NCBI GenBank assembly: GCA_947581665.1
Contig: CANPVI010000001.1
Location: 1 to 61,792 of the forward strand
DNA length: 61,792 bases
Direction: 5' to 3'
Origin: an uncultured Atopobiaceae bacterium
GTDB taxonomy: Bacteria; Actinomycetota; Coriobacteriia; Coriobacteriales; Atopobiaceae
The notes under the pieces were generated by a model. That model was given only the letters and a program-made list of their open reading frames with translations. It ran no database searches and had not been told where the DNA came from. The position numbers and the translations under genes were made by a program. Every line of letters begins with the position of its first letter. The stretch's first letter is position 1. Of this stretch, positions 17,306 to 45,911 are shown piece after piece.

Positions 17306-17938
17306 TTAAAGATTTTTGAATTTTGTCTGCAAGCCTTTGAGCTTCGCTTGCTGTTTCGCTCTCTCGGCGGTCTGTTTCTCCGCCTGTTCCTTGCTCCGCT
17401 GTTCCGCCTTATACCCGTCATATTCCTGCATTGCACGAACACCGACATCGGTTGCCGTGTATGCGGGGAAAGTTACGGGACTGACATCGAACAGTTGCAC
17501 TTTTCGGATTTCCCGAACATCCATCGAGTCCTTGGTAGACCATTCGTCTTCCTCGACTATGAACCCTATGGACATCTGCGTGATGTCCCCTCGGCGGATG
17601 CTTGTCACGATATCCCTTGCCCAACCCGTATCAGGCGGCAGTATTCGGACTCGGAGTCCGACTTCGTCTTCAGCGAGTTCGAGCGTTCCCGCTCTGTTTC
17701 GACCAAGCACATAGTTGGGATCGTGGTTGAATAATGCTCGGATATCGTCTTTGCCGATGCTTTCGCTGAATGCGCCCTTTCGGACTATTTCCCGAAACGG
17801 AAAGATTCCGCCAAGGGTTTCGGACCACGAATCGAACACGGCTGCGTGTCCTTCTATGACCGCACTACCCTTTTCGCTTTCGTTTACCCGAAGTTCCGTC
17901 ATCGGGAGCATTCGCAGTTCCTTCTTGCCCTTCTCCAT
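17306..17938 (-). CDS. HK97-family prohead protease
   Basis: ..IEGHAAVFDSWSE..FNHDPNYVLGR..GDITQMSIGF.. Confidence 0.85.
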   Translation of the reverse strand: MEKGKKELRMLPMTELRVNESEKGSAVIEGHAAVFDSWSETLGGIFPFREIVRKGAFSESIGKDDIRALFNHDPNYVLGRNRAGTLELAEDEVGLRVRILPPDTGWARDIVTSIRRGDITQMSIGFIVEEDEWSTKDSMDVREIRKVQLFDVSPVTFPAYTATDVGVRAMQEYDGYKAEQRSKEQAEKQTAERAKQQAKLKGLQTKFKNL

Positions 17939-19184
17939 CGCTACCTCCTTCTTGTTTTTCTTCGCCGCCCGTGGATGCCGACTTCATGTTTCCGTTGACG
18001 AGGTAGGTGTCCCCACCGTCCTCTTTCGGAATAAGCGGCATATCCTCCAAACGGCGTATATCGTTAATGGACAGCCATCCGTTTTGCCTACCGACTGCAT
18101 AGCCCTCCATCCTCGATTTGTAGTCGCCACGCATCAAGCCGTCCACATTGAATTTCGGGAAATACAAAAGCCGTTCTTTCTCATCCAAGAGCGAACGGCT
18201 GATTTCCTGTTCCCACCGCACCAACCACGGTCGGATGGTGTGCTGAACAAATTCGATTGATTGGTGTTCAATGTTGCTGAATGTGGCTCTTTCCAAGTCG
18301 CCCACAAGGTGCGGCGGAACACGGAAGATACGGCAAATCTCATTGACTTGGTACTTGCGTGTTTCGAGGAATTGTGCATCCTCCGGGGCAATGCCGATTG
18401 TGTGGTATTTCATCCCCTCTTCGAGTACCGCCACCTTATGGCTGTTCCTTGTCCCTTGGTAGACCTTATTCCAAGACTCCCTTAACTTTTCGGGGTCCTT
18501 CAGTATGCCGGGGTGTTCGAGAACACCGCCGGGACGCGCTCCGTTTCCAAAGAACTTTGCTCCGTATTCCTCGGTCGCAAGCGACAGTCCGACCGCCTCC
18601 CTTGCCTGCGCTATGGGACTTAATCCCACCACCCCGTCAACCGACAAGCCCTTGATGTGGAAGACTTGGTCTGGGGTGTACACGATGGTTTGGTTGGTGA
18701 TATCGTCCGAGTACGTGTATTTGATCTTGCCTGTGTTCGTATCCCTCTCGACCGTCATGAGCTGCGGTTTCAAGTACCAAAGTTCCGTCACATGACCGTT
18801 TTTGCGGATTTTCCGTGCATAGGCATTGCCCCATAACAGGAGCGAGGTCATCATCGTTTCTCGGAACTCGAAACTGGTGCATTCCTCATTCGGCGAGTCA
18901 TGGAGACACGAAAAAAGCGGATGTTGCTCCGCCGTTTCGCTCTTTCCGTCTTTGCCTTTCTTGTATAAGTGCAACGGCAGACTTGCCACCGTTTCCGCAA
19001 GGATCTTGACGCAGGCATACACCGCCGAGGTCTGCAATGCCCGCATTTCGTCCACGCGCACACCGCTGTTGCTCCCGCCGTAGAAGTCCACGTCGACTCC
19101 CCTGATGAAGTCCTGCATTTCCTTGCTCGGTGCGGTCCGTTGCTCCTTCTTAGGGGCATCCCTACTTCGTCCGAAAATTCTCAT
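17865..19184 (-). CDS. portal protein, HK97 family
   Basis: ..SAVYACVKILAETVASLPLHLYKK.. Start trimmed to ATG 19184 (GGGAGGG 3 nt upstream). Confidence 0.9.
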   Translation of the reverse strand: MRIFGRSRDAPKKEQRTAPSKEMQDFIRGVDVDFYGGSNSGVRVDEMRALQTSAVYACVKILAETVASLPLHLYKKGKDGKSETAEQHPLFSCLHDSPNEECTSFEFRETMMTSLLLWGNAYARKIRKNGHVTELWYLKPQLMTVERDTNTGKIKYTYSDDITNQTIVYTPDQVFHIKGLSVDGVVGLSPIAQAREAVGLSLATEEYGAKFFGNGARPGGVLEHPGILKDPEKLRESWNKVYQGTRNSHKVAVLEEGMKYHTIGIAPEDAQFLETRKYQVNEICRIFRVPPHLVGDLERATFSNIEHQSIEFVQHTIRPWLVRWEQEISRSLLDEKERLLYFPKFNVDGLMRGDYKSRMEGYAVGRQNGWLSINDIRRLEDMPLIPKEDGGDTYLVNGNMKSASTGGEEKQEGGSDGEGQEGTANAPDDGTSGKRKRKG

Positions 19185-19249
19185 TTGCCCTCCCTTTTCC
19201 AAATAATTTGAGCCGTCCTTTCGGGCGGCTCGATCTGTCTTTTTTCCGT

Positions 19250-19543
19250 TTATTTTTTCAGCGGCTTGCTGTCTATCAGCGAGGCGCAGACGTTGTCGAT
19301 TGCTTTCCACTCAGCCGAGCATTTCAGCACCGCATATTTCCCTTGCATCTGCGCTCTGTACACCTTGGCTTGGTGCGCCGCGAACTCTTCGGCGATGATT
19401 TCGGGTGCGTGTTCTACATCGGCGAGGATGCGCTTTTTGAGTTCTTCGACCTTCGCATCGTAGGCTGCGTTTTCCTCTGCGGTCGCGTTGTCATGGAATC
19501 CGTGGCTGTAGTATTTAAGTGTTCTGAAGATGTCTTTTGCCAT
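19250..19543 (-). CDS. hypothetical 97-aa protein (accessory cassette)
   Basis: MAKDIFRTLKYYSHGFHDNATAEENAAYDAKVEELKK..; AGGGAGAG SD; preceded by promoter module 3. Confidence 0.6.
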   Translation of the reverse strand: MAKDIFRTLKYYSHGFHDNATAEENAAYDAKVEELKKRILADVEHAPEIIAEEFAAHQAKVYRAQMQGKYAVLKCSAEWKAIDNVCASLIDSKPLKK

Positions 19544-19592
19544 TTTTTTGCTCTCCCTTTGGGGTGCTGCCCCTCTTTGATTTTGTAACACA

Positions 19593-19690
19593 ACAATACC
19601 GTAAAAAGAGGAAAGAGCCCAGCGAAAAGCGGTCAAAAACACAACTTTTTTTCGGAAAATTCCAAGAATTTTTGGCACGAAAAAACCACC
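19593..19690 (-). promoter_or_regulatory. promoter module copy 3
   Basis: Minus strand reads AAAAAGTTGTGTTTTTGACCGCTTTTCGCTGGGCTC-16 nt-TATTGT. Leader hairpin GGGGCAGCACCCC lies at 19561..19573. Confidence 0.55.
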
Positions 19691-19727
19691 ATATTTCAGG
19701 TGGTTTTATGTGCTTTTCTCTCTTATT

Positions 19728-20114
19728 TTAACTCCCGAACAGGATCTTTCCCGTTTCGAGGGTTTCGCCGTGATGGAGGATCTCCACGATTGCGGTCAAG
19801 GTGTCGTAGTCCTCTTCGGGGTATTCGCTCACCGCATCCCACCATGCCGACCGCAGCACTTCTCTTCTCCCGACCTCACCGACCGAGCCGAGCCTGCTAT
19901 CGTATACCTTGGGATCGTAGGTCACCGCCTCAGCATTGAAGGCATCTTTGAGTTTCAGCCAGAGGCTGTGCGCTTTGCGGTAGGTTTCGGGATCCGCCGT
20001 TCCTGTGAGTTGCGCTATCGGGCAGATGGTGTTCTTCGCCCATTTGATGGGGGTGTTGATGTTTGCTACCACCTCTTCGGCGGTCATCCATTCGTAGTTG
20101 TATTCCTTTGCCAT
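19728..20114 (-). CDS. hypothetical 128-aa protein
   Basis: MAKEYNYEWMTAEEVVANINTPIKWAKNTICPIAQL..; GGGAGGG SD. Confidence 0.6.
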   Translation of the reverse strand: MAKEYNYEWMTAEEVVANINTPIKWAKNTICPIAQLTGTADPETYRKAHSLWLKLKDAFNAEAVTYDPKVYDSRLGSVGEVGRREVLRSAWWDAVSEYPEEDYDTLTAIVEILHHGETLETGKILFGS

Positions 20115-20115
20115 C

Positions 20116-20307
20116 TTATTTGCCCTCCCTACCAAGTTGGTATGCCTGTTCGAGCATCGCTTTGAGTCCCCACACCGAGATGTCGAGGAAGTCTTCTTCA
20201 TCGTTCCACCGTCTTTCGAGGTCGCTGCGTTCTTCGACCACCACGCTGTTCTCCATCGCTATCTTGAGCAGTTCTTTTGCTGTCTTTGCGCTGATTTTCT
20301 TTTCCAT
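20116..20307 (-). CDS. hypothetical 63-aa protein
   Basis: MEKKISAKTAKELLKIAMENSVVVEERSDLERRWNDEEDF..; AAGGAG SD; first gene after promoter module 4. Confidence 0.5.
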   Translation of the reverse strand: MEKKISAKTAKELLKIAMENSVVVEERSDLERRWNDEEDFLDISVWGLKAMLEQAYQLGREGK

Positions 20308-20354
20308 TTTTGGCTCCTTTTTCGGGGGTGTTCCCCTTTCGTTTGTGTAAGCCA

Positions 20355-20445
20355 AGTATAGCGTAAAGAACGGAAAGAGCCCAGCGAAATCGCGCTAAAA
20401 ACACAACTTTTTTCAAAGAAAAATCGGGGGATTTTTTCCTCCGAT
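20355..20445 (-). promoter_or_regulatory. promoter module copy 4
   Basis: AAAAAGTTGTGTTTTTAGCGCGATTTCGCTGGGCTC-16 nt-TATACT. Leader hairpin GGGGAACACCCC lies at 20324..20336. Confidence 0.55.
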
Positions 20446-20478
20446 TTTATGGTTTTCAGCGCATCCGTGACGGCATTT

Positions 20479-20853
20479 TTAGCCGATTTTTACCACGAGT
20501 GCCGGGCGGTATTCGGTGACTTCTTTGTCCGTTTCGGAGTCGTACCTTTTGAACTGAGTGGGGATCATCTTCATGCCGTCCACGCTGCATCCCCGCTTGC
20601 AGAGTTCCCACAGCACTTCGGTCAGGCTGCTGAATGTCGAGCTGATGGTGATGCGGTCGAGGCCTTCCAGTCTGCAGGTGGCAAGGATGCCTTCGATGTC
20701 TTCTTCCCAGATGATGTCCGAGAAGTTGAGGTCGTCCGTTCCTGCCTTTCTGCTGTCCCTGTATGCCTTGTACAGCGTCCAGTTCACATCCTTGGCTTCG
20801 TTGCGTTGCTTGGGATCGTTCATGAGGTCTTCGTAGGTCTTTATGATTTTCAT
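20479..20853 (-). CDS. hypothetical 124-aa protein
   Basis: MKIIKTYEDLMNDPKQRNEAKDVNWTLYKAYRDSRKAG..; GAAGGAG SD. Confidence 0.6.
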   Translation of the reverse strand: MKIIKTYEDLMNDPKQRNEAKDVNWTLYKAYRDSRKAGTDDLNFSDIIWEEDIEGILATCRLEGLDRITISSTFSSLTEVLWELCKRGCSVDGMKMIPTQFKRYDSETDKEVTEYRPALVVKIG

Positions 20854-20899
20854 TCTTTGCTCCTTCGGGCGGTTGCCCTTGCTTTGTTTTTGTAAGCAA

Positions 20900-20990
20900 A
20901 GTATAGCGTAAAGAACAGAAAGAGCCCAGTGAAAATCGGCTAAAAACACAACTTTTTTCGGGAAAAACGAAAGAATTTTCGGCACTCTAA
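20900..20990 (-). promoter_or_regulatory. promoter module copy 5
   Basis: AAAAAGTTGTGTTTTTAGCCGATTTTCACTGGGCTC-16 nt-TATACT. Leader hairpin GGGCAACCGCCC lies at 20867..20878. Confidence 0.55.
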
Positions 20991-21028
20991 CCGTACCGAT
21001 TTCGACACGGTTCGCCGTCCTTTTTGGG

Positions 21029-21060
21029 GGAAATGCGCACACAAATGTATGCGCATTTCC
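21029..21060. repeat. perfect 11-bp-arm inverted repeat GGAAATGCGCA-N10-TGCGCATTTCC
   Basis: Read directly. Lies between promoter module 5 and the repeat array. Confidence 0.6.
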
Positions 21061-21097
21061 GCTCCGTTCTTCCCCCTGATATTCCATATTTTCGGTG

Positions 21098-21600
21098 ATG
21101 GTTACCCCTCGCTACCCTTATAGTGAAAGGTCCTACACGGGCAGGGTACACACCATGCGCCGTAAGGTTGCAGGGAGACACCCTGCCCCCTTCCGCAGTA
21201 AGGTTGCAGGCGGCTTGTGTCCCCCTTGTTACTCTTTCAAAGGGGTTACCCCCTCCCACAGTAAGCGTGTGGACGGTTTGTAACCCCCTCGTTACTCTTT
21301 AAGTGAACGGACACCCCGCCCCCTCCCACAGTAAGGGTGAAGACGGGTTGCACTACCCCCGGCACTCTTAAAGTGTGAGAGCAGTCCCGCCAAGGTACTC
21401 CCCCGCTACTCTTTCAAAGGGGGTCACACCCCCTTGCGGTTTTAGTGAGCGGGTGTAGCCTGTCTCCCCCTTCTTACACTTAAAGGGGGAAGGGGTTACC
21501 CCTCACGACACTTTAAGTGCAGGCGGACACCTGTCCCCTGCGACTCTTTTCTCGACAGCACCTCGTAAGCCGAACGGCGGCGAGTGTTGAATATTTTTTA
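21098..21600. repeat. 0.5-kb non-coding array of degenerate, interleaved repeats with roughly 35-bp periodic C4-5 tracts
   Basis: Eight copies of AC(T/A)CTT(T)nAA(A)G(T/G)G near-palindromes start at about 21112, 21231, 21294, 21364, 21408, 21476, 21508 and 21543. Four copies of C(A/C)GTAAG(G/C)(G/T)TG lie at about 21161, 21196, 21259 and 21329. CCCC(C) runs recur about every 28-45 bp. Confidence 0.7.
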
Positions 21601-21614
21601 AGGAGTGTTTTGCT

Positions 21615-21974
21615 ATGCAAGACCCGATTGAAGCCCTGTTATCCCTTTACCGTGCCAAGATGCCCAAGACGGTGTATCTTATGCGCAACGAGCCCCGCTA
21701 CTCCGCTGTCAAGCACGAGATTGACGGATTTGTCAAGACCGTGCTTGCCGAGGATCCCGATGCCGAAGTGATGGTCGAACCCGATGAGCTGACTGGCTCA
21801 AGCATCTCTGTGTCGGTCATCACCGACTTGCTTGTCCTCTCCGACACGCACAGCCTTCTTCCCCTCTTCGCCCTTGCAGATAACATCGAAGTCTGCGCCC
21901 GCACGGATGGTCGGTTCTACTTCGACCTGTCCTTTCAGAACTGCTACAAGCCCGCACCCGCACACGTCAAATAA
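21615..21974 (+). CDS. hypothetical 119-aa protein (plus strand, opposite to the late genes)
   Basis: AAGGAG lies 8 nt before the ATG. MQDPIEALLSLYRAKMPKTVYLMRNEPRYSAVKHEIDGF.. Confidence 0.6.
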   Translation: MQDPIEALLSLYRAKMPKTVYLMRNEPRYSAVKHEIDGFVKTVLAEDPDAEVMVEPDELTGSSISVSVITDLLVLSDTHSLLPLFALADNIEVCARTDGRFYFDLSFQNCYKPAPAHVK

Positions 21975-21986
21975 GGAGAAAAAGCC

Positions 21987-22304
21987 ATGATAAAAGTCTA
22001 CTGCAAACCCACCGAAAAAGGTGTCCACTCTTTCTTCCTCTCGGTCGAGGGAAAGGACTACTTCCTGTTCCGTCAGCGGTACTCAACGAGTAACCGAAAC
22101 TTCTTCGGGAGCGGTGTCCCGCTCGACCGTGTCTTTTCTTTTCGGAATGTCCACAGCGTTGCCACGCAGCGCACCCTTGATAAAATTCAGACGGCGATCC
22201 CCCTTGCCGAACGGCGGTTCGGTATCGCCGTGACCAAGAAGCAACTCCGCAAAACCGACAGACGGTTCGAACGGTCTGCTCCCCGTTACTTGGAGGCGAT
22301 TTGA
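21987..22304 (+). CDS. hypothetical 105-aa basic protein
   Basis: AAGGAG SD. MIKVYCKPTEKGVHSFFLSVEGKDYFLFRQRY..KKQLRKTDRRFERSAPRYLEAI. Confidence 0.55.
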   Translation: MIKVYCKPTEKGVHSFFLSVEGKDYFLFRQRYSTSNRNFFGSGVPLDRVFSFRNVHSVATQRTLDKIQTAIPLAERRFGIAVTKKQLRKTDRRFERSAPRYLEAI

Positions 22305-22334
22305 GGTCAAAGGCATCGGATTCGAGTCCTTTGG

Positions 22335-23672
22335 TCAGTCGAAAATCTCCACTCCGTCCCTGATGTGCCTGACATCGGCATTCGGATTCTGCTCTCGGAA
22401 TCGGCGCACGATGACATCGCAGTATCTCGGTTCGAGTTCGATTGCACAACACTTTCGGTTGAGCTGCTCGGCGGCAATCAAGGTCGAACCACTCCCGCAG
22501 AACGGCTCCAAGACCATGTCCCCCTCATGGCTGCTGTTATAGATGAGCTTGGCGCATAAGGTAATGGGTTTCATGGTCGGGTGGTCTGGGGACTTGCTCG
22601 GTTTGTTGTCCCTGATCACCGTGGTCGGCTTGCCGAGGATGTCTTCGAGTAGGTCTGCGAGTTCCGCCTTGGACATTTTCTTGATGTTCTCTCGGATGTC
22701 TTCGTAGACGGTCGGTAGCGTCCTATCGTCTATGAAGTAATGCCCCGCTCCTTCTTTCCATCCGTACAGTATCGGTTCATGGATCCATTGGTAGTCCTGT
22801 CTGCCAATGGTGAAGTGGTTTTTATACCACACGAGCGTCTGGGCATATTTCAGCCCCGCATCGGTCATCGCCTTGGTGAAGTTGACCGTTTCCTTGGTGC
22901 TGTGGAAGACATATATCGGTGCGCCGTTCTTCAACCCCTTCTCCGCCGCCTTATAAAAGGCACTCAAGAACTGGTAGAACTCATCGTCCGAAAGGTTATC
23001 GTTGGCGATGTTGCTGTTTTGTCGGCTACTCGAATGGTTCTTCCCCCTTATGCTCGATCCGTAGTCCACGTTGTACGGAGGATCGGTCACCATGATGTCC
23101 GCTTGCTTGCCGTCCAAAACTCGGTTCACATCCTCGAACTGTGTGCTGTCGCCGCACAACAGCCGATGCGTCCCCAAGAGCCACAAATCGCCCGTTTTGG
23201 TCTTCGGTTCGGCTGTTTCTTCGAGGGCAGTTTCGGCATCGAAATCATCTTCATGCACGTTCTCCATACTGCCGCTGCCGAACAGTTCCTGCGCTTCGGC
23301 AAGGTCGAAACCCGTGAGGGTGATGTCAAATCCGCTCCCGTCCAAATCACGGAGTAGATTCGCCAAGAGGTCGGTATCCCACTCGCCGCTGATTTTGTTC
23401 AAGGCGATGTTGAGAGCCTTTTCCTTGCTCTCTTCGAGGTCCACCACCACGCAGTCCACCTCCGTGTAGCCGAGGTCCTTCATCACGGTCAGCCGTTGGT
23501 GTCCGCCTACTACCTTGCCTGTCCGTTTGTTCCAGATGATAGGCTCGACATAGCCGAACTCCAAAATGCTCCGTTTGAGCTTCTCGTACTCGGCATCGCC
23601 GGGTTTGAGTGCTTTCCTCGGATTGTACTCCGCCGCCTTAAGGTCGGCTACTTGCTTTTTCTCAATCTCCAT
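22335..23672 (-). CDS. ParB-like nuclease domain fused to an N6-adenine/N4-cytosine DNA methyltransferase
   Basis: N-terminus ..AEYNPRK..VVGGHQRL.. (ParB/Srx fold). TDPPY catalytic motif. C-terminal LEPFCGSGST SAM motif. Start is ATG 23672 (GGAGG). Confidence 0.85.
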   Translation of the reverse strand: MEIEKKQVADLKAAEYNPRKALKPGDAEYEKLKRSILEFGYVEPIIWNKRTGKVVGGHQRLTVMKDLGYTEVDCVVVDLEESKEKALNIALNKISGEWDTDLLANLLRDLDGSGFDITLTGFDLAEAQELFGSGSMENVHEDDFDAETALEETAEPKTKTGDLWLLGTHRLLCGDSTQFEDVNRVLDGKQADIMVTDPPYNVDYGSSIRGKNHSSSRQNSNIANDNLSDDEFYQFLSAFYKAAEKGLKNGAPIYVFHSTKETVNFTKAMTDAGLKYAQTLVWYKNHFTIGRQDYQWIHEPILYGWKEGAGHYFIDDRTLPTVYEDIRENIKKMSKAELADLLEDILGKPTTVIRDNKPSKSPDHPTMKPITLCAKLIYNSSHEGDMVLEPFCGSGSTLIAAEQLNRKCCAIELEPRYCDVIVRRFREQNPNADVRHIRDGVEIFD

Positions 23673-23731
23673 TTTTCCTCCAAAATAATGACCACACCGC
23701 ATCGGTGTGGCCGTTCGTTTTTGCTGTCCGC

Positions 23732-23935
23732 TTATCTGTGTTCGGGTAACTGCCCGTCATCGACCAAGATGGCATACAAGATTCCGCTGTAATTGAATCT
23801 CTCCATCGTTGCCTTCATTTTGTCGTAGATTTTCTGCATCTCGGCTTGGCTTGCCTTCGCCCTGATTGCCGTTTCGTATTCATACACGAGTTGCTCTTCG
23901 AGAGCGCAGTCTTCATCGATTATAATGTTCGCCAT
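23732..23935 (-). CDS. hypothetical 67-aa protein
   Basis: MANIIIDEDCALEEQLVYEYETAIRAKASQAEMQKIYDKMK..; internal ATG directly after the upstream stop. Confidence 0.45.
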   Translation of the reverse strand: MANIIIDEDCALEEQLVYEYETAIRAKASQAEMQKIYDKMKATMERFNYSGILYAILVDDGQLPEHR

Positions 23936-23942
23936 GACTCTC

Positions 23943-24248
23943 TCACCTTGCCTTTTTGATGATGCCTGTGGATCTCGCCCAAGTGTAGCCGTCAAGGTCC
24001 ACCACGATGCTGTATGACACGTCTTCGCTGTCGATGCGGATGCATCTCCGTTCGCCCTTCTCCGTTTCGCCGCTGATGTCCGCATTCGCTTTCAGGAACT
24101 CATAGTCGCCCATGAGGTCTTCGCTGAACTTTACGAACTCCGCTCGGTCAAGGATGATCCGCTTTTCTACTTTGACCGCTATCTTTTCGCCGTCTTCATG
24201 GAGGTAATGCTCGATTGACCTCGCCTTATGCACCATTTTGATTTTCAT
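23943..24248 (-). CDS. hypothetical 101-aa protein
   Basis: GAAGGAGAAC SD. MKIKMVHKARSIEHYLHEDGEKIAVKVEK.. Confidence 0.6.
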   Translation of the reverse strand: MKIKMVHKARSIEHYLHEDGEKIAVKVEKRIILDRAEFVKFSEDLMGDYEFLKANADISGETEKGERRCIRIDSEDVSYSIVVDLDGYTWARSTGIIKKAR

Positions 24249-24288
24249 GCCGTTCTCCTTCGGGCATCTGCCCTTGTTTTTTTATGCA

Positions 24289-24376
24289 ATTATAGCGTAA
24301 ACAACCGAAAGAGCCCAGAGAAATGCGGCCTAAAACACAGGTTTTTTACAAGAAAAACGCTCGGATTCCCAAGCGT
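24289..24376 (-). promoter_or_regulatory. promoter module copy 6
   Basis: AAAACCTGTGTTTTAGGCCGCATTTCTCTGGGCTC-16 nt-TATAAT. Leader hairpin GGGCAGATGCCC lies at 24262..24273. Confidence 0.55.
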
Positions 24377-25165
24377 TCAGTCTTCAATGACGATGCAATT
24401 TACTCTCTGCGAGTGCGCCGTGCAAGCGTCTATCGCTATAATACCCTTTCCGTAGTATGGCGTGAAGTCCGCATCATCCTCGAACTCCGTGCCTTTCCCC
24501 TCGATCTTGGCGTGTCCGTAGGAGCAATGCCAATGCCCGCACACGATGGTCTTCCCTTCCTCTATCACTCCGTCCTGCGCCGCCGCCATTCCGTTATACC
24601 AACGGGAGAGTGCGAACTCTTCTTTCGGCTGTTCCCGCCAATTCGGTATCGGCAAGTATCGTGCCGAGTATCGGTTGACGAGTATCTTTTGGCAAGGTAT
24701 CCATCCGTGGGTGAAGATGTAATTCGGGGTTTCGTAGTAGTCGAGCATTGCGGGGATGAGCTTCTTGAAGTATGGTGTGTTCTCCATCTTCCTTGCCGTC
24801 CGCTCTGGATACAAGCAAGCCTCCGCAAGCGATTGCCCCGTGAGTTGCAGAATCGTATCAATCGTTCCGTTGCTCCAATGGTGGGTGAAGAAGATGCTAC
24901 TGTCATCGGTCAGCCACTTCGTTGCGTTCTGCACCAGTTCCTCGGTGAGGTCTTCGTGGTTTCCCCGTATAAGGATGAGCTGTCCCTTGGCTTGCTCCCC
25001 CACCATGAATTCTTGGAGTGCCACCGCTTCCCTGCCACGGTCGAACAGATCCCCGCAGACAAGGAGTTTGTGCGGCTCCTTATCGTAAAAGTATCCTTTT
25101 TCTTTGAGTGCCGCCACCATCTCCGTGTAGAACCCGTGGGTGTCGGCTAAAACATAATATCTCAT
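24377..25165 (-). CDS. calcineurin-like metallophosphoesterase (Ser/Thr phosphatase / diadenosine-tetraphosphatase-like)
   Basis: Motifs VLADTHG, GDLFDRG, GNHE and ..GHWH.. in canonical order. Confidence 0.85.
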   Translation of the reverse strand: MRYYVLADTHGFYTEMVAALKEKGYFYDKEPHKLLVCGDLFDRGREAVALQEFMVGEQAKGQLILIRGNHEDLTEELVQNATKWLTDDSSIFFTHHWSNGTIDTILQLTGQSLAEACLYPERTARKMENTPYFKKLIPAMLDYYETPNYIFTHGWIPCQKILVNRYSARYLPIPNWREQPKEEFALSRWYNGMAAAQDGVIEEGKTIVCGHWHCSYGHAKIEGKGTEFEDDADFTPYYGKGIIAIDACTAHSQRVNCIVIED

Positions 25166-25215: not shown

Positions 25216-26766
25216 CTAAATGACGATTATCCCCCTTTCGTTATACACGCTGTCCGTGCCGCCTTGGTTGCGTATCGCACGGTCCAGAGCCATGACGAGT
25301 GCCACCGCTCCGTCTATGCGCTCCGTGGACTTCTCTTTGTCCATCTTGATGTTGCCCGCAGGATCCGTGCGGACGAAGACGTTGTCCATCATCCACCGCA
25401 AAGGCACATTCCCGCCGTGCGCGATTTTCTGCTCAAGCACGAGCTTCATGAGTTCCTTTGTCGGTGGCGACATATCCTTGAACCCCTGACCGAACGGCAC
25501 GACCGTGAACCCCATCCCTTCGAGATTCTGCGTCATCTGCACCGCTCCCCATCGGTCAAAGGCGATTTCCTTGATGTTGTACTTTGTGCCGAGGTCCTCT
25601 ATAAAGGTTTCGATGTATCCGTAGTGGATGACATTCCCCTCGGTGGTTATGACCTGCCCCTTTGCTTTCCATGTGTCGTATGGAACGTGGTCACGCCGCA
25701 CTCGGAGGTCTATGGTGTCTTCGGGGATCCAAAAGAACGGCAAGACCATGTATTTATCGTCTTCGTCCAAAGGCGGAAAGACCAACACAAAGGCGGTGAT
25801 GTCCGTGCTGCTTGATAGGTCGAGTCCACCGTAGCACTCCCGCCCTTTCAGCCGTTCCGCATCCACGGCGAAGTCGCACTTGTCCCATGCATCCATAGGC
25901 ATCCAACGAACGCTTTGCTTTACCCATTGGTTCAGTCGCAGTTGGCGGAAGAGGTTTTCCTCCGCCGGGTTCTCTTTGGCGGACTCGTATGCGGTCCGCA
26001 GTTTTTCTATGTCCACCGTCACTCCGAGAGACGGATTTGCTTTCCGCCACACCGATTCGTCCGACCAATCATCGTCATCCTCTGCTCCGTATATCACTGG
26101 GTAGAATGTTTTGTCATGCTTTCGCCCTTCGAGGATGTCCTTTGCTTTTTGGTGGACTTCCCAACAGATGCTGTTCCGATCCGTTCCCGCCGTGGTTATA
26201 AGGAAGAACAGGGGTTGCTTTCTCGCATCGCCAGAGCCGTGAGTCATGACATCGTATAGGGCTCGGTTCGGCTGCGCATGGAGTTCATCGAACACGACTC
26301 CGTGGACATTCAGTCCGTGCTTGGTGTACGATTCCGCCGACAGCACCTGATAAAACGAATTCAGCGGCAGATAGACGAGCCGTTTCTGGCTCATCACAGG
26401 CTTGATGCGCTTTTTGAGTGCCGGGCATTGCTCCACCATATTGCAGGCGACATCGAAGACGATGCTTGCCTGCTGTCTGTCCGCCGCACAGCCGTACACC
26501 TCCGCACCCCACTCTCCATCCCCTGCGAGGAGATAAAGGGCGACAGCGGCCGCAATTTCGCTCTTCCCTTGCTTTTTGGGTATCTCTACATAGGCGGTGT
26601 TGTATTGCCTATATCCGTTGTCCTTTACTGTTCCGAATATATCTCGGATGATTTTATCTTGCCAAGGCAAGAGTTCAAACGGTACGCCGTGCCAAGTGCC
26701 TTTTGTGTGTTTTAAGGAGTTGATAAAGGCAACGGCACGGTCCGCAAGCTGCTGATTGTATGCCAT
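25216..26766 (-). CDS. terL: terminase large subunit
   Basis: 516 aa. ..GTWHGVPFELLPWQDKII..VEIPKKQGKSEIAAAVALYLL.. (Walker A-like) and a C-terminal nuclease region. Confidence 0.9.
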   Translation of the reverse strand: MAYNQQLADRAVAFINSLKHTKGTWHGVPFELLPWQDKIIRDIFGTVKDNGYRQYNTAYVEIPKKQGKSEIAAAVALYLLAGDGEWGAEVYGCAADRQQASIVFDVACNMVEQCPALKKRIKPVMSQKRLVYLPLNSFYQVLSAESYTKHGLNVHGVVFDELHAQPNRALYDVMTHGSGDARKQPLFFLITTAGTDRNSICWEVHQKAKDILEGRKHDKTFYPVIYGAEDDDDWSDESVWRKANPSLGVTVDIEKLRTAYESAKENPAEENLFRQLRLNQWVKQSVRWMPMDAWDKCDFAVDAERLKGRECYGGLDLSSSTDITAFVLVFPPLDEDDKYMVLPFFWIPEDTIDLRVRRDHVPYDTWKAKGQVITTEGNVIHYGYIETFIEDLGTKYNIKEIAFDRWGAVQMTQNLEGMGFTVVPFGQGFKDMSPPTKELMKLVLEQKIAHGGNVPLRWMMDNVFVRTDPAGNIKMDKEKSTERIDGAVALVMALDRAIRNQGGTDSVYNERGIIVI

Positions 26767-43100: not shown

Positions 43101-43475
43101 TTACATTTCCAAAATTTTAATGTCATAAATGTTCGAGAAAAATATTTTCATCTCGTCCAATATCAGATATTTGTACGCATAGTCTATCCGTTGCACCTTG
43201 CCGCAGGACTCCACGTCATGGCAGGCTCGGTAATGCTCGATCCGTACTTTCATCCCTGTTTCAAGCATAGCCAATGTTTCGGAGATTTCCTCGATGGTAT
43301 CATCGGAGAGGTCCCGTTTTTCCACTCGGCTGCGCCGTTCCTCTCGCACCGCCAAGGCTTCTTTCAAGCCCTTCATCGCATCGAACGGCATAAACTGTTT
43401 AGCCCTTTGTTCCCTTGTCATCGTACCCTGCTCTGTGTCCGCCGATGAAACCATTCCGTTCTCTCTGCGTGGCAC
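43101..43475 (-). CDS. YolD-like protein (start uncertain: GTG 43475, ATG 43454 or ATG 43421)
   Basis: ..REQRAKQFMPFDAMKGLKEAL..; downstream partner of the Y-family polymerase, as in SPbeta yolD-uvrX. Confidence 0.7.
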   Translation of the reverse strand: MPRRENGMVSSADTEQGTMTREQRAKQFMPFDAMKGLKEALAVREERRSRVEKRDLSDDTIEEISETLAMLETGMKVRIEHYRACHDVESCGKVQRIDYAYKYLILDEMKIFFSNIYDIKILEM

Positions 43476-44685
43476 CCTCCATATAGTTGATTCCTCGGAG
43501 CAAGGAGTTCTTGCCGAACTTGTCCGTTATGGCAAGCACCGTCTGCTCCCTCCGCTTTTCTCTCTCCACTTCGCCAAAGTCTGTGAAGAGGTCGTAGCCT
43601 TCGCACGACTCATCGCATACGTCCGCGAAGTCGATTCCGAGTCGCCTGATCTCCGCTCCCTTGTCCGTGGTCTGCTCGAAGATTTCCATAACATACGGTA
43701 TCACCATCGAATACAGGTTAGTGGTCACCGTCATCCGCTTTGTCCCGCCCGTCGGTTCATGACCGCCGAACGTGTATCCCACGAAAATTCCCACTTTGTT
43801 GGTTATGACGTGCCGCCGCATCATCTCATGACAGCCGTTCAGCACCATCTCCGTCATCACGAGCTTCGCTTCATCGTAGTTGTAGTTTCTCGGTAGCACC
43901 TGTGAGAACGACACCGACTTCGACTTGCTGTGGTAGTTCTTGATGTCTTTTATCAGGCAAGGCTCTCTACCCCACGCATGGTCAATCAACAATTCTCCGT
44001 TAATCCCAAACACTTTATACAGGAGTTCCTGCGGTGCTTTCGCTATACCCTCCATGTCATAGATGCCGTATCGGGCAAGCCGTGATGCTGTGCCATGCGC
44101 TATCTGCCAGAAGTCCTCTATCGGTCGGTGATTCCACAGCGTCTTGATATAGGTTTCTTCGGTCAGATAGCCGATGTGGTCCTTGCTGTGCTTGGCGGTG
44201 ATATCCAAGGCTATCTTGGCGAGGTATAGGTTCGTCCCTATCCCTGCGGTCGATGGGATGTGCATTTTGTCGGCGATTTCGTTCATGAGCTTCTTCGCCA
44301 AGGCGACTGCATCCATCTTGAAGAGCGGCAAGTATTCCGTCACGTCGATGAACGACTCGTCTATCGAGTAGACGTGAATGTCCTGCGGATCGAAGTAGTT
44401 TAGATATAGGTCGTATATGTCGGCTGCGTACTCAATGTAGAGCTGCATCCGTGGCAGGGCTCGTATGAAATTTATCGACTTGGGAATCTCCGACATTCGG
44501 CATCGGTTTTTTATCCCCTGCGCCTTCATTTTGGGTGTGATAGCAAGACACAAGGCATTCTTGCCTCGCATTTCATCGACCACGGCAAGGTTCGTTTCGA
44601 AAGGATTTAACCCTCGCTCCGCACACTCGACCGATGCGTAAAAGGTCTTCATGTCTATGCAGAAGTATGTTCTCTGCGCTGCCAT
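43399..44685 (-). CDS. Y-family (DinB/UmuC-like) translesion DNA polymerase
   Basis: ..YFCIDMKTFYASVECAERG..VYSIDESFIDVT.. Confidence 0.9.
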   Translation of the reverse strand: MAAQRTYFCIDMKTFYASVECAERGLNPFETNLAVVDEMRGKNALCLAITPKMKAQGIKNRCRMSEIPKSINFIRALPRMQLYIEYAADIYDLYLNYFDPQDIHVYSIDESFIDVTEYLPLFKMDAVALAKKLMNEIADKMHIPSTAGIGTNLYLAKIALDITAKHSKDHIGYLTEETYIKTLWNHRPIEDFWQIAHGTASRLARYGIYDMEGIAKAPQELLYKVFGINGELLIDHAWGREPCLIKDIKNYHSKSKSVSFSQVLPRNYNYDEAKLVMTEMVLNGCHEMMRRHVITNKVGIFVGYTFGGHEPTGGTKRMTVTTNLYSMVIPYVMEIFEQTTDKGAEIRRLGIDFADVCDESCEGYDLFTDFGEVEREKRREQTVLAITDKFGKNSLLRGINYMEGATQRERNGFIGGHRAGYDDKGTKG

Positions 44686-44701
44686 CAGCCACCGCCTGTC
44701 T

Positions 44702-45304
44702 CTAATTCAAGTCCTTGATTACCTTTACCGCCACACCTTGCACCATGATTTGGTCAACGAAAATGTCATCCATATTCGGGTTTTCGGGATGCAGATAGTA
44801 GACATCTTCCTCCGAGTCGTATTCGAGCCGTTTCAGCGTGACTTCGTTCTCCACGAGTGCCACCACGATGTCGCCCACCTCTGCGGTTTCTTGCTGCCGT
44901 ATCAGCACAAGGTCTTCGTCATTGATGCCTGCGCCAATCATCGAATCGCCGCTTGCTTTCAAGATGAAGAATTTTCCTTGCCCTATCAACGACTCTGGCA
45001 GACGAACATATCCCTCGATATATTCCTCTACTTCGGTCAGCGGTCCGCAAGGGACTGCGCCGAGGATCGCCACCGACCGCATCGGTGAGTCGCTCTGGGC
45101 GAGTGATTTAGAGATGTAGCCGTTCCTGCCCTTGCAGAGCAGTCCGTCTTTCTCTAATCTCGCAAGGTATTTGTATGCTCCGCCAACACTCAAGCCGTAT
45201 TCTTCGGCTACTTCCCTGACTGTCGGTCCGTAGCCTTGCTTGTCGCATTGCTCTTCTACATACTCCTGTATTTGTTTCAAAAGGTTTTGGTCGGGACTGC
45301 GCAT
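44702..45304 (-). CDS. lexA: LexA-type repressor (winged HTH + S24 autopeptidase)
   Basis: ..GYGPTVREVAEEYGLS..; the cleavage region lies between the DNA-binding and S24 domains (exact scissile bond not identified); ..ASGDSMIGAGI..VTLKRL.. Confidence 0.9.
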   Translation of the reverse strand: MRSPDQNLLKQIQEYVEEQCDKQGYGPTVREVAEEYGLSVGGAYKYLARLEKDGLLCKGRNGYISKSLAQSDSPMRSVAILGAVPCGPLTEVEEYIEGYVRLPESLIGQGKFFILKASGDSMIGAGINDEDLVLIRQQETAEVGDIVVALVENEVTLKRLEYDSEEDVYYLHPENPNMDDIFVDQIMVQGVAVKVIKDLN

Positions 45305-45439: not shown

Positions 45440-45745
45440 TCATTTTTTCTTGTAGTCGGCGAAGGCATATATCGGTGCCGGGTGCTTGCTCTGTCTTCTT
45501 GCCATGTAGCCGTACATACTCACATTGTAGAGCTTGCCGTCTGCGTGGATGGCAAGCGTGAAGAAGTCCGTCCCCTTGCTCGGATCGATCTCTTCTCCGT
45601 TCATCCATACGCAGCCGAGGTCCTTCGCCCATTGGAGAAAGGCTCTCCCCTCTCTCTTCATATCCTTTACAGTGAACCATACCATCTGCTCATTCCCACA
45701 CATATCCTTGTAGGTCAATTCGGTTGTCTTCGTTACTTTTCGCAT
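45440..45745 (-). CDS. hypothetical 101-aa protein
   Basis: MRKVTKTTELTYKDMCGNEQMVWFTVKDMKREGRAFLQWAKDLG..; GAGAGG SD. Start is ATG 45745. Confidence 0.6.
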   Translation of the reverse strand: MRKVTKTTELTYKDMCGNEQMVWFTVKDMKREGRAFLQWAKDLGCVWMNGEEIDPSKGTDFFTLAIHADGKLYNVSMYGYMARRQSKHPAPIYAFADYKKK

Positions 45746-45749
45746 AAAA

Positions 45750-45911
45750 ATACCTCTCTGTTGGATTCCACAAAGAGGTATGAGAAAACCCATCGTCCGA
45801 TGGGTTCTTCCTTTCGTTATATCCCATCGTTCAGCCTTTAGCACCTTGCCGTTCGGTAGGTTGCTGTGCGGTCATTGGGGCTGTCCCTAACGCACTCTTT
45901 ATGGTACTTTT
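45750..45911 (-). promoter_or_regulatory. ~160-nt attenuator-like leader of 45440..45745
   Basis: On the RNA, CGATGGG (45829..45823), CCCATCG (45804..45798) and CGATGGG (45795..45789) are followed by UUUUCUC. An SD-sequestering hairpin follows at 45750..45781. Confidence 0.5.

Follow-up and report, generated by a model that had tools for sequence, protein, structure and literature searches.

Type III toxin-antitoxin (TA) systems are recognized by the order of their parts, namely repeats, a palindromic terminator and a gene, and the ToxI repeat RNA neutralises the protein encoded downstream (PMC3401426). RCd22/AbiF and AvcI-AvcD are type III-like systems with proteins other than ToxN (PMC12373285, PMC10511110); the RCd22 RNA features two abiF motifs and lies, on a prophage, upstream of AbiF, which it neutralises (PMC12373285). 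Pseudo-ToxI repeats mark the genome of phage PhiTE, and their copy number changes in escape phages (PMC3475682). Here a degenerate repeat array, followed on the same strand by two small genes, is described in a 61,792-nt stretch of contig CANPVI010000001.1 (assembly GCA_947581665.1, from an uncultured Atopobiaceae bacterium). This stretch, called the window below, is a tailed-phage genome, in which nearly all genes lie on the minus strand. The array is a genuine element, both conserved and fast-evolving, and belongs to the family of the first gene of the cassette, which encodes a protein of 119 amino acids (aa). Array and cassette comprise the following parts.

21105-21559, plus strand: repeat array, about 13 degenerate units of 28-44 nt each, with a C-run at each start
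21105, 21221, 21284, 21356, 21400, 21466 and 21499, plus strand: starts of B-type units, with a partial unit at 21535
21153, 21186, 21249 and 21319, plus strand: starts of A-type units, with a variant unit (CCCCCTTGCGGTTTTAGTGAG) at 21429
21562-21584, plus strand: hairpin CUCG-UAA-GCC-GAAC-GGC-GG-CGAG, between array and gene, at the position held in relatives by canonical terminator hairpins
21594-21605, plus strand: T-run (21594-21599) directly followed by the ribosome-binding site (RBS) AAGGAG (21600-21605); start codon at 21615
21615-21974, plus strand: 119-aa gene, the conserved partner of the array, encoding an acidic protein (isoelectric point, pI, 4.8)
21987-22304, plus strand: 105-aa gene, encoding a very basic protein (pI 10.6), of which two protein clusters are known

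Repeat units and their link to the 119-aa gene family

The array is made by two alternating types of units, and not by the three independent repeat signals distinguished in a preliminary description of this DNA. B-type units follow the pattern CCCCC-N3-TTACTCTTTAAGTGA, in fuller form CCCCC-N2-4-(T)TACTCTTT(A/C)A(G/A)(T/A)G; A-type units follow the pattern CCCCCTCCCACAGTAAGG, in fuller form CCCCCT-CC(A/G)CAGTAAGG. The repeats were confirmed: they are genuine, local and much more frequent than expected by chance. The 20984-21612 region hosts 14 plus-strand runs of at least four C, spaced 28-44 bp, and is in this respect the maximum of the whole sequence (background mean 2.25 runs per 629-bp interval, standard deviation 1.76). 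The CCRCAGTAAGGKTG motif occurs four times in the array and once elsewhere (up to 2 mismatches; expectation 0.76), and the four best matches to CCCCC-N3-TTACTCTTT (0-2 mismatches) all reside in the array. Matches of a profile built from units of other loci only were confined, in the window, to the plus strand of 21104-21521 (best E 2.4e-8). The array had been thought to span 20984-21612; repeats are indeed present there, but the array proper measures 21105-21559, and 20984-21104 is a non-repeat upstream portion of the same inserted segment. The region had also been called GC-rich: its GC content (0.55) exceeds that of the window (0.506) only modestly, and adjacent genes have comparable values.

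Tandem-repeat analysis, and a search for the motif in related elements, had been proposed as checks. Tandem Repeats Finder (TRF) reported no array in the window, even at score 30, because identity to the reference copy is only 63-81% and unit length is uneven. In the motif search, the units were found to recur upstream of distant homologues of the 119-aa gene. Metagenomes were scanned at the DNA level only with the motif CCCC-N1-5-TACTMTTTMAGTGA, and 120 loci were found. A homologue of the 119-aa protein is encoded in 12 of them, and in 11 of these 12 the motif lies at most ~250 nt upstream, on the same strand, with the gene directly downstream. Four loci (Christensenella, Christensenellaceae, Clostridia, and one other metagenome-assembled genome, MAG) were added by a genome scan. 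The number of B-like units per homologue locus ranges from 1 to 9, and A-like units (CCACAGTATATA, GCAGTATATATAGG) are present as well. Arrays of several units that keep this unit sequence precede homologues down to ~35% protein identity, at a GC content ranging from 0.35 to 0.56, and in several comparisons conservation is higher for the units than for the proteins. In L136, an AT-rich contig (35% GC), the units CCCCCTTTTACTATTTAAGTGA and CACCCCTGTTGCGTTGTTAGTGAG are still recognizable upstream of a 38%-identical homologue, and the latter matches the variant unit found at 21429 in the window. Since the same units recur before distant relatives of the 119-aa gene in phages of other gut bacteria, the array is a real partner element of the gene, and probably an RNA.

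The association is also specific and oriented. TRF analysis of the surroundings of all 183 motif matches detected motif-bearing tandems only in loci with a gene of the 119-aa family. In two of these loci (L170 and L269) a 70 nt x 2.3 array, with 86% match, lies directly upstream of the homologous gene. The profile found 0-1 antisense matches in other loci, and 9 sense versus 3 antisense matches in the window. The arrays end in a hairpin, followed by a T-run and an RBS. The same order is seen in the window, in L136, in L139, in loci of the L150/L154 type and in L010, a locus with a 71%-identical homologue, where the 21562-21584 hairpin is kept with a wobble-type change. In L154-type relatives a canonical terminator-like site was called by the scan (CCACTGCTTCGGCGGTGG directly followed by CTTTTATAAT). 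The signature made by motif plus gene has sufficient specificity for the annotation of such loci in metagenomic data.

The 119-aa family is rare and unnamed. Exhaustive HMMER searches found 73 clusters (E<=1e-3) among 1.84 billion representatives, of which a word-indexed search yielded 3 only. No match to the protein was found in Pfam, PHROG, NCBIfam or PADLOC, and no relatives were found in IMG/VR by peptide patterns; the divergence of two further alignments (A3 and A4) was too high for locus searches. The AlphaFold model is confident (predicted local distance difference test, pLDDT, 94.7) and features an alpha/beta fold. Foldseek retrieved nothing from the PDB at E<=1e-3, the best match being GHKL or anti-sigma-like (TM 0.45), and only uncharacterised proteins from a viral structure library. 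Family members have a pI of 4.4-5.4 in most loci. The second gene encodes in most loci a small basic protein, and often overlaps the first by stop and start codons. It belongs to at least three unrelated families, represented by the 105-aa type of the window, the L184/L139 type (phrog_16724) and the L009/L142 type, and hence the constant partner of the array is the acidic 119-aa family protein. The model of the 105-aa protein is unusable (pLDDT 52); its sequence search against the PDB returned no match, as did the profile of the L184-type second gene. With one acidic and one basic product, the gene pair is laid out in a way reminiscent of type II TA operons.

Insertion, copy number and genomic setting

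The 119-aa and 105-aa genes run on the plus strand, against the gene flow of the 6-kb accessory island (19250-25165) in which they lie. The island is inserted between the genes for the large terminase and the portal protein, which are usually adjacent, and includes the ParB-methyltransferase gene, a NinI-like phosphatase gene, DUF7698 and DUF6900 genes, and the reverse-oriented cassette. The ParB_N/N6-N4 methyltransferase fusion (22335-23702; phrog_498) has counterparts of up to 84% identity in 80 phage loci of IMG/VR, and neither array nor cassette was found in any of these. In one of them (L056) the next promoter module begins directly after the methylase stop codon. The relatives lacking array and cassette, and the L056 junction, identify ~1.35 kb (from ~20984-21000 to 22334) as an added module. 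One of the hypotheses of the preliminary description had linked the repeats to the nearby ParB-domain protein as a centromere-like array; as related phages keep the ParB-methylase without the array, this idea fails. Two elements mark the left part of the insert.

20979-20999, minus strand: terminator-like hairpin (TCGGTACGGTTAGAGTGCCGA then AAATTCTTTC) detected by the scan, at the left edge of the inserted segment
21029-21060, no strand: near-perfect palindrome GGAAATGCGCACACA / TGTATGCGCATTTCC, with 15-nt arms 93% complementary, ~45 bp upstream of the first unit

The 20979-20999 hairpin starts the resident minus-strand promoter module located before the DUF7698 gene (start codon 20853). The palindrome had been described as a perfect inverted repeat with 11-bp arms; it exists, with the longer and slightly imperfect arms given above. 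It is unchanged in two near-identical contigs (L002 and L003), and is flanked by no T-run 3' of it on either strand. It is a candidate operator, or a candidate 5' hairpin of the cassette.

Copy number changes between near-identical phages. Eight short contigs encode an identical 119-aa protein, and the cassette is 100% identical wherever the array is covered; the array is 36 nt (one unit) shorter in L003, and differs by +72 nt and -22 nt in L002 and L007. The 22-nt gap falls within the minus-strand open reading frame (ORF) 20987-21259 and breaks it, and thus supports the earlier view that the region is non-coding. Only the last ~two units, the hairpin and the RBS are kept in L010. Differences are whole-unit insertions or deletions rather than adenine-directed substitutions, and a diversity-generating mechanism was rejected as the source of array divergence. 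No close relative was found by blastn in phage GenBank records. One or two leader hairpins might have expanded neutrally by slippage or recombination, so that nothing but the proximal unit, the hairpin and the RBS would matter. The contraction seen in L010, the degeneracy of the units and their varying number (1-9 B-like) would fit such a process; the persistence of multi-unit arrays to ~35% protein identity over a wide range of GC content, and units conserved better than proteins, make it highly improbable.

A sister lineage carries the cassette at a different site. The 43399-45304 stretch of the window (minus strand) encodes a LexA-like repressor (Peptidase_S24 plus LexA DNA-binding domain), followed by a Y-family (ImpB/MucB/SamB) polymerase, and is 65-75% identical at the DNA level to the L184, L150 and L202 loci. 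In these relatives array and cassette reside beside lexA, between lexA and a gene preceded by a SAM riboswitch. The lexA-side site is empty in the window, which hosts instead a 36%-identical version of the cassette in the terminase-portal island. Its location at different sites in sister lineages indicates that the module behaves as an autonomous mobile cassette; the insertion, and the residence beside lexA in the sister lineage, suggest from sequence comparison that it is self-contained.

Some features of the surroundings were also noted. In L184-type sister elements array and cassette are divergent from the adjoining lexA. In L217 an SOS-box-like sequence (CGAACATTTGTTTG) lies, by inspection, in the spacer of a TTGACA-N17-TATAAT promoter, and the promoter was called in L154. 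The SAM riboswitch of the window maps inside the phage at 45821-45907 (minus strand; 51.9 bits, gathering score 44.4), upstream of an ORF of ~100 aa that, by reading of the sequence, spans ~45510-45790 on the same strand. Riboswitch and gene are conserved in L150, L202, L217 and L184, where they adjoin the array cassette. The positions of the genes flanking the island are as follows.

25216-26766: large terminase
17865-19310: portal protein, followed by head protease and major head protein

A promoter module of ~100 nt recurs in the island on the minus strand, at 19560-19660, 20360-20460, 20860-20983 and ~24250-24350, before each small accessory gene. Its text reads ...AAAAAAGTTGTGTTTTTAGCCGATTTTCACTGGGCTC...TATACT...GCAAGGGCAACCGCCCGAAGGAG-ATG, often with a terminator hairpin upstream, and many copies are found in related IMG/VR phages, as L058 and L056. 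The conserved CACTGGGCTC box of the module is not a sigma-70 -35 element, and may point to a phage-specific promoter type. A 202-aa ORF (20479-21087, minus strand) is the 124-aa DUF7698 gene artefactually extended upstream; its genuine start codon is the ATG at 20853, located behind GAAGGAG, and the extension crosses the promoter module into the left edge of the region analyzed here. At the opposite end, the hairpin CAAAGGCATCGGATTCGAGTCCTTTG (22305-22334) separates the convergent stops of the 105-aa and methyltransferase genes. No T-run flanks it on either strand, and read-through from the methylase operon could therefore give antisense RNA over cassette and array.

Folding of the units and role of the array

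The units share a constant asymmetric centre (ACTCTTTAAGT) flanked by arms which vary in sequence and yet are complementary, as in GTT/AAC, CGCT/AGCG, CTAGC/GCTAG and CTTAC/GTAAG. Complementarity of cognate arms (3.72) exceeds that of non-cognate arms (2.79), and none of 5000 permutations reached the observed value. A constant centre with variable complementary arms is the pattern of a hairpin, and not of a DNA site bound by a dimer. The support that covariation gives to unit hairpins is moderate.

The array may provide a multi-copy, plus-strand RNA which binds or regulates the co-encoded protein or proteins, in an architecture akin to type III, but with a protein and a repeat design that are both new. 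In favour are the linkage to the 119-aa family, the sense orientation of the profile matches, the hairpin, T-run and RBS which follow the units, the complementary arms, the structured leader of family members without repeats, the changes in copy number, the insertion of the cassette as a module, and the precedents of ToxI and RCd22. We favour this reading tentatively, and would give it somewhat less than an even chance; transcription, the strand used, RNA-protein binding and any toxicity are what we infer from the arrangement of the sequence. The array would be the multi-copy structured 5' part of the plus-strand transcript of the cassette, and each ~35-nt unit would present a conserved (U)UACUCUUUAAGUG or CAGUAAGG beside a C-run, often in a hairpin with variable arms. 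Transcription would start in 20984-21104, proceed through the units and stop in part at the hairpin/T-run (21562-21599), leaving the repeat RNA in excess over the mRNA of the two cassette genes. The repeat RNA might then bind and restrain a co-encoded protein, or tune its synthesis; its constant partner would be the 119-aa family protein, and the whole unit would travel autonomously, as a mobile cassette, among phages of gut Clostridia.

Several results weigh against this reading. When a unit hairpin was set in a fixed register, covariation was not significant: 71.7% of the cells were paired versus 70.0% in shuffles, and 77 of 500 shuffles reached the observed value; no consensus structure for the units was found by RNAalifold. 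A hairpin with the C-run as loop (GUAA...UUAC) was rejected (cognate 2.41 versus permuted 2.40, p=0.45). Both strands fold better than shuffles (z -4.65 sense, -5.58 antisense), as partly palindromic repeats would whether or not the structure is used. Counts of G-U versus A-C pairs were uninformative as to the strand, the excess of G-U in the sense strand being explained by base composition. The scan of the window found no sigma-70-like promoter ahead of the array on the plus strand, and did not call the 21562-21584 hairpin as a terminator, because the T-run is 9 nt away. The acidity of the constant protein partner is unusual for an RNA binder, and a ToxN-like fold was rejected, as the model of the 119-aa protein is unlike ToxN, CptN and TenpN. 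The units are of two types and only 63-81% alike, whereas known type III repeats are near-identical. Finally, in L277 and L169 a perfect tandem of 59 nt x >=3.9 that shares the core is found at a distance of 2.8 kb upstream of the family gene, and adjacency of array and gene is therefore not absolute.

The tandem with the core CCCCGCCCCCCGCTACTCTTTAAGTGAGCGGACAC was identified in L277 (1-232; Christensenella MAG), L169 (1-114; metagenome contig) and L051 (1-120; IMG/VR contig). In L277 it is followed by ~1.2 kb without convincing ORFs, and the family gene has its own non-repeat leader.

Such a tandem next to a gene-poor stretch is reminiscent of origins and centromeres, and bears on the hypothesis that the repeats work as double-stranded DNA, in the form of direct-repeat sites (operator, roadblock, iteron, centromere-like) for a phage or host protein which would control the cassette or DNA handling. 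Conservation resides mainly in a 22-25-bp asymmetric direct-repeat sequence, covariation in a fixed register is absent, and a palindrome typical of operators lies just upstream, all of which a DNA array would explain. Yet the spacing is irregular (26-70 bp) and not helix-phased, the variable arms around the constant centre are complementary, and hairpin, T-run and RBS always lie 3' of the array. No ParA or Rep partner is found, relatives have the ParB-domain protein but not the array, and the constant neighbour is acidic, with no recognised DNA-binding domain. We regard a DNA array as decidedly unlikely. Of the three hypotheses of the preliminary description, the multi-operator or iteron array is less favoured, and an antitoxin-like repeat RNA of type III is the best fit, by same-strand linkage upstream of the gene across many unrelated contexts and the terminator-like hairpin in relatives; membership in the ToxN, CptN or TenpN groups fails.

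Some family members carry no repeats and feature a single-copy structured leader instead. These leaders are listed by locus.

L009, 1925-2066: single-copy leader
L141, 1868-2004: single-copy leader
L142, 1235-1392: single-copy leader
L169, 2735-2895: single-copy leader
L277, 2900-3060: single-copy leader

The leaders fold into a first hairpin, which has compensatory changes and a CGUAA loop, and a second hairpin with a CUUA(C/U)AGU loop; base pairing of a GCCUC segment with the RBS (GGAGG) is predicted. By inspection only, their loops (CGUAA, CUUAUAGU) resemble the A and B cores. The leader of this subgroup is, from its sequence, a candidate new cis-regulatory RNA motif.

The array itself might be a purely cis-acting leader, an attenuator or an RBS-hiding element which senses a host or phage factor and decides between termination at 21562-21599 and read-through or translation, with no role in trans. 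It lies between the presumed promoter and the hairpin/T-run/RBS, as such a leader would; the leader of the non-repeat subgroup offers a parallel in its covarying hairpin and predicted GCCUC-Shine-Dalgarno pairing. By inspection, complementarity to the RBS sequences AAGGAGU or AGGAGGG is seen in the unit core ACUCUUU and in the C-run plus U, and the last unit is base-paired to the RBS region in the minimum-free-energy structure. A switch of this kind needs neither 4-13 copies nor a copy number in flux between near-identical phages, and would not account for the distinct 59-nt tandem of L277, which shares the core and is located 2.8 kb from the gene; nor did any known family of riboswitches or leaders give a match. 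A leader acting in cis alone is an unlikely explanation.

Known RNA families were searched in the window and in nine related loci, and neither the gathering threshold nor E<=10 gave a match to the array in Rfam. The region produced only microRNA and small nucleolar RNA matches of chance level at the looser cutoff (E<=10), and the SAM riboswitch, outside the array, is the only match of the window at the gathering threshold. The tRNA/tmRNA scan found none, and covariance models gave no match to the abiF motif or to other Rfam families of cis-regulatory elements or small RNAs.

Comparison with known systems

Centromere and iteron arrays of plasmids (sopC, parC, Rep iterons) share with the element described here direct repeats of similar length upstream of small genes, but no ParA, ParM or Rep gene is found here, the spacing is irregular, and a hairpin, a T-run and an RBS follow the array. 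A partition centromere (sopC/parS/parC) is not supported, as the ParB_N neighbour is a methyltransferase fusion present in 80 loci in which the array was not found, and no ParA was seen in the cassette. Defining features of an iteron origin are lacking as well, given the irregular 28-44 bp spacing, the lack of Rep signatures in adjacent genes, and the distance of primase and helicase genes (>14 kb). The units abut, are 63-81% alike and vary in length, and no Rfam CRISPR-DR match was found; neither a CRISPR array nor a solitary-repeat anti-CRISPR RNA fits.

Sponge RNAs as CsrB/RsmZ share degenerate repeated hairpins with variable stems, one loop presented many times, and a variable number of units. 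The loop motif is here ACUCUUUAAGU or CAGUAAGG, and not GGA, co-transcription with a phage gene is proposed, and no CsrA-like partner was identified. Membership in this group was rejected, as the unit core is ACTCTTTAAGT or CAGTAAGG, no GGA loop recurs and no Rfam match was found; the likeness is architectural only.

The pseudo-ToxI repeats of PhiTE are similar in being phage-borne, non-coding and changing in copy number between close relatives, and part of ToxI is identical to an 11-nt core of the array. The ToxI sequence was verified in pECA1039, and the B core shares with it TTTAAGTGCAG (11 nt). Identity with the ToxI RNA was rejected, as only TTTAAGTGCAG is shared (3.0 bits, reached in 0 of 300 shuffles) and no Rfam match was found at E<=10; the similarity is a lead, not evidence of homology. 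In contrast to PhiTE, no cognate toxIN-like host locus with this motif was found, the array keeps to a gene family of its own, and the likeness to ToxI is short and weak. The comparison raises the alternative that the array is a decoy or sponge acting in trans on a host factor, be it a type III toxin, or ribosomes or mRNAs reached through C-rich seeds resembling anti-Shine-Dalgarno sequences, the downstream genes being co-functional in counter-defence. It would agree with the residence of the array in an accessory island beside an orphan ParB-methyltransferase, with a copy number which expands and contracts as that of pseudo-ToxI in escape phages (PMC3475682), and with a B profile that scores ToxI above all 300 shuffles. 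The match is however only 11 nt (3.0 bits), none of the 183 motif loci showed a tandem outside the 119-aa family context, so that no toxIN-like host locus with the motif was found, the tight link to one gene family is left unexplained, and related cassettes adjoin lexA rather than obvious anti-defence islands. Such a decoy role appears very unlikely.

RCd22/AbiF and AvcI-AvcD share with the locus a conserved RNA motif upstream of a protein gene, and indicate that the type III principle extends to unrelated proteins. The locus differs from them in having no abiF or other Rfam match, a much smaller protein (119 aa) and a far higher copy number.

A close parallel is with type III TA systems (toxIN, cptIN, tenpIN), which show a similar order of repeats of ~30-60 nt, palindromic hairpin or terminator, and protein gene on the same strand. 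In the window TRF detects no array and the hairpin is not called as a terminator; a TRF-detectable array is seen in L170 and L269, and a canonical terminator-like site in the L154 type. Carriage on mobile elements or phages and variable repeat number are also shared, and the unit measures ~35 nt, that of ToxI 36 nt. Membership in toxIN, cptIN or tenpIN was rejected on the protein, which has no signature, no fold match and a pI of 4.8: it is not a homologue of ToxN, CptN or TenpN, but acidic and of unrelated fold. Further differences are the variable basic second gene, and the existence of family members without any repeats. Array and 119-aa gene might represent a new class of RNA-repeat/protein modules, in which heterogeneous, rapidly expanding hairpin units bind stoichiometrically a small acidic protein of previously unseen fold and perhaps, through it, a variable basic effector, as a mobile TA-like or counter-defence cassette of phages of gut Clostridia; this wider proposal is doubtful. 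The cassette measures only 1.3 kb, and the hypotheses are therefore directly testable by cloning. Were the proposed role true, a function would be given to a protein family that no library names, and the locus would illustrate clearly, in a natural setting, how the copy number of a regulatory or antitoxic RNA evolves; the phages concerned are those of abundant, poorly studied gut Clostridia as Christensenellales. If the array is the RNA partner of the protein, the RNA-repeat/protein systems known as type III TA, AbiF-RCd22 and AvcID would gain a new fold and a degenerate, two-type repeat design.

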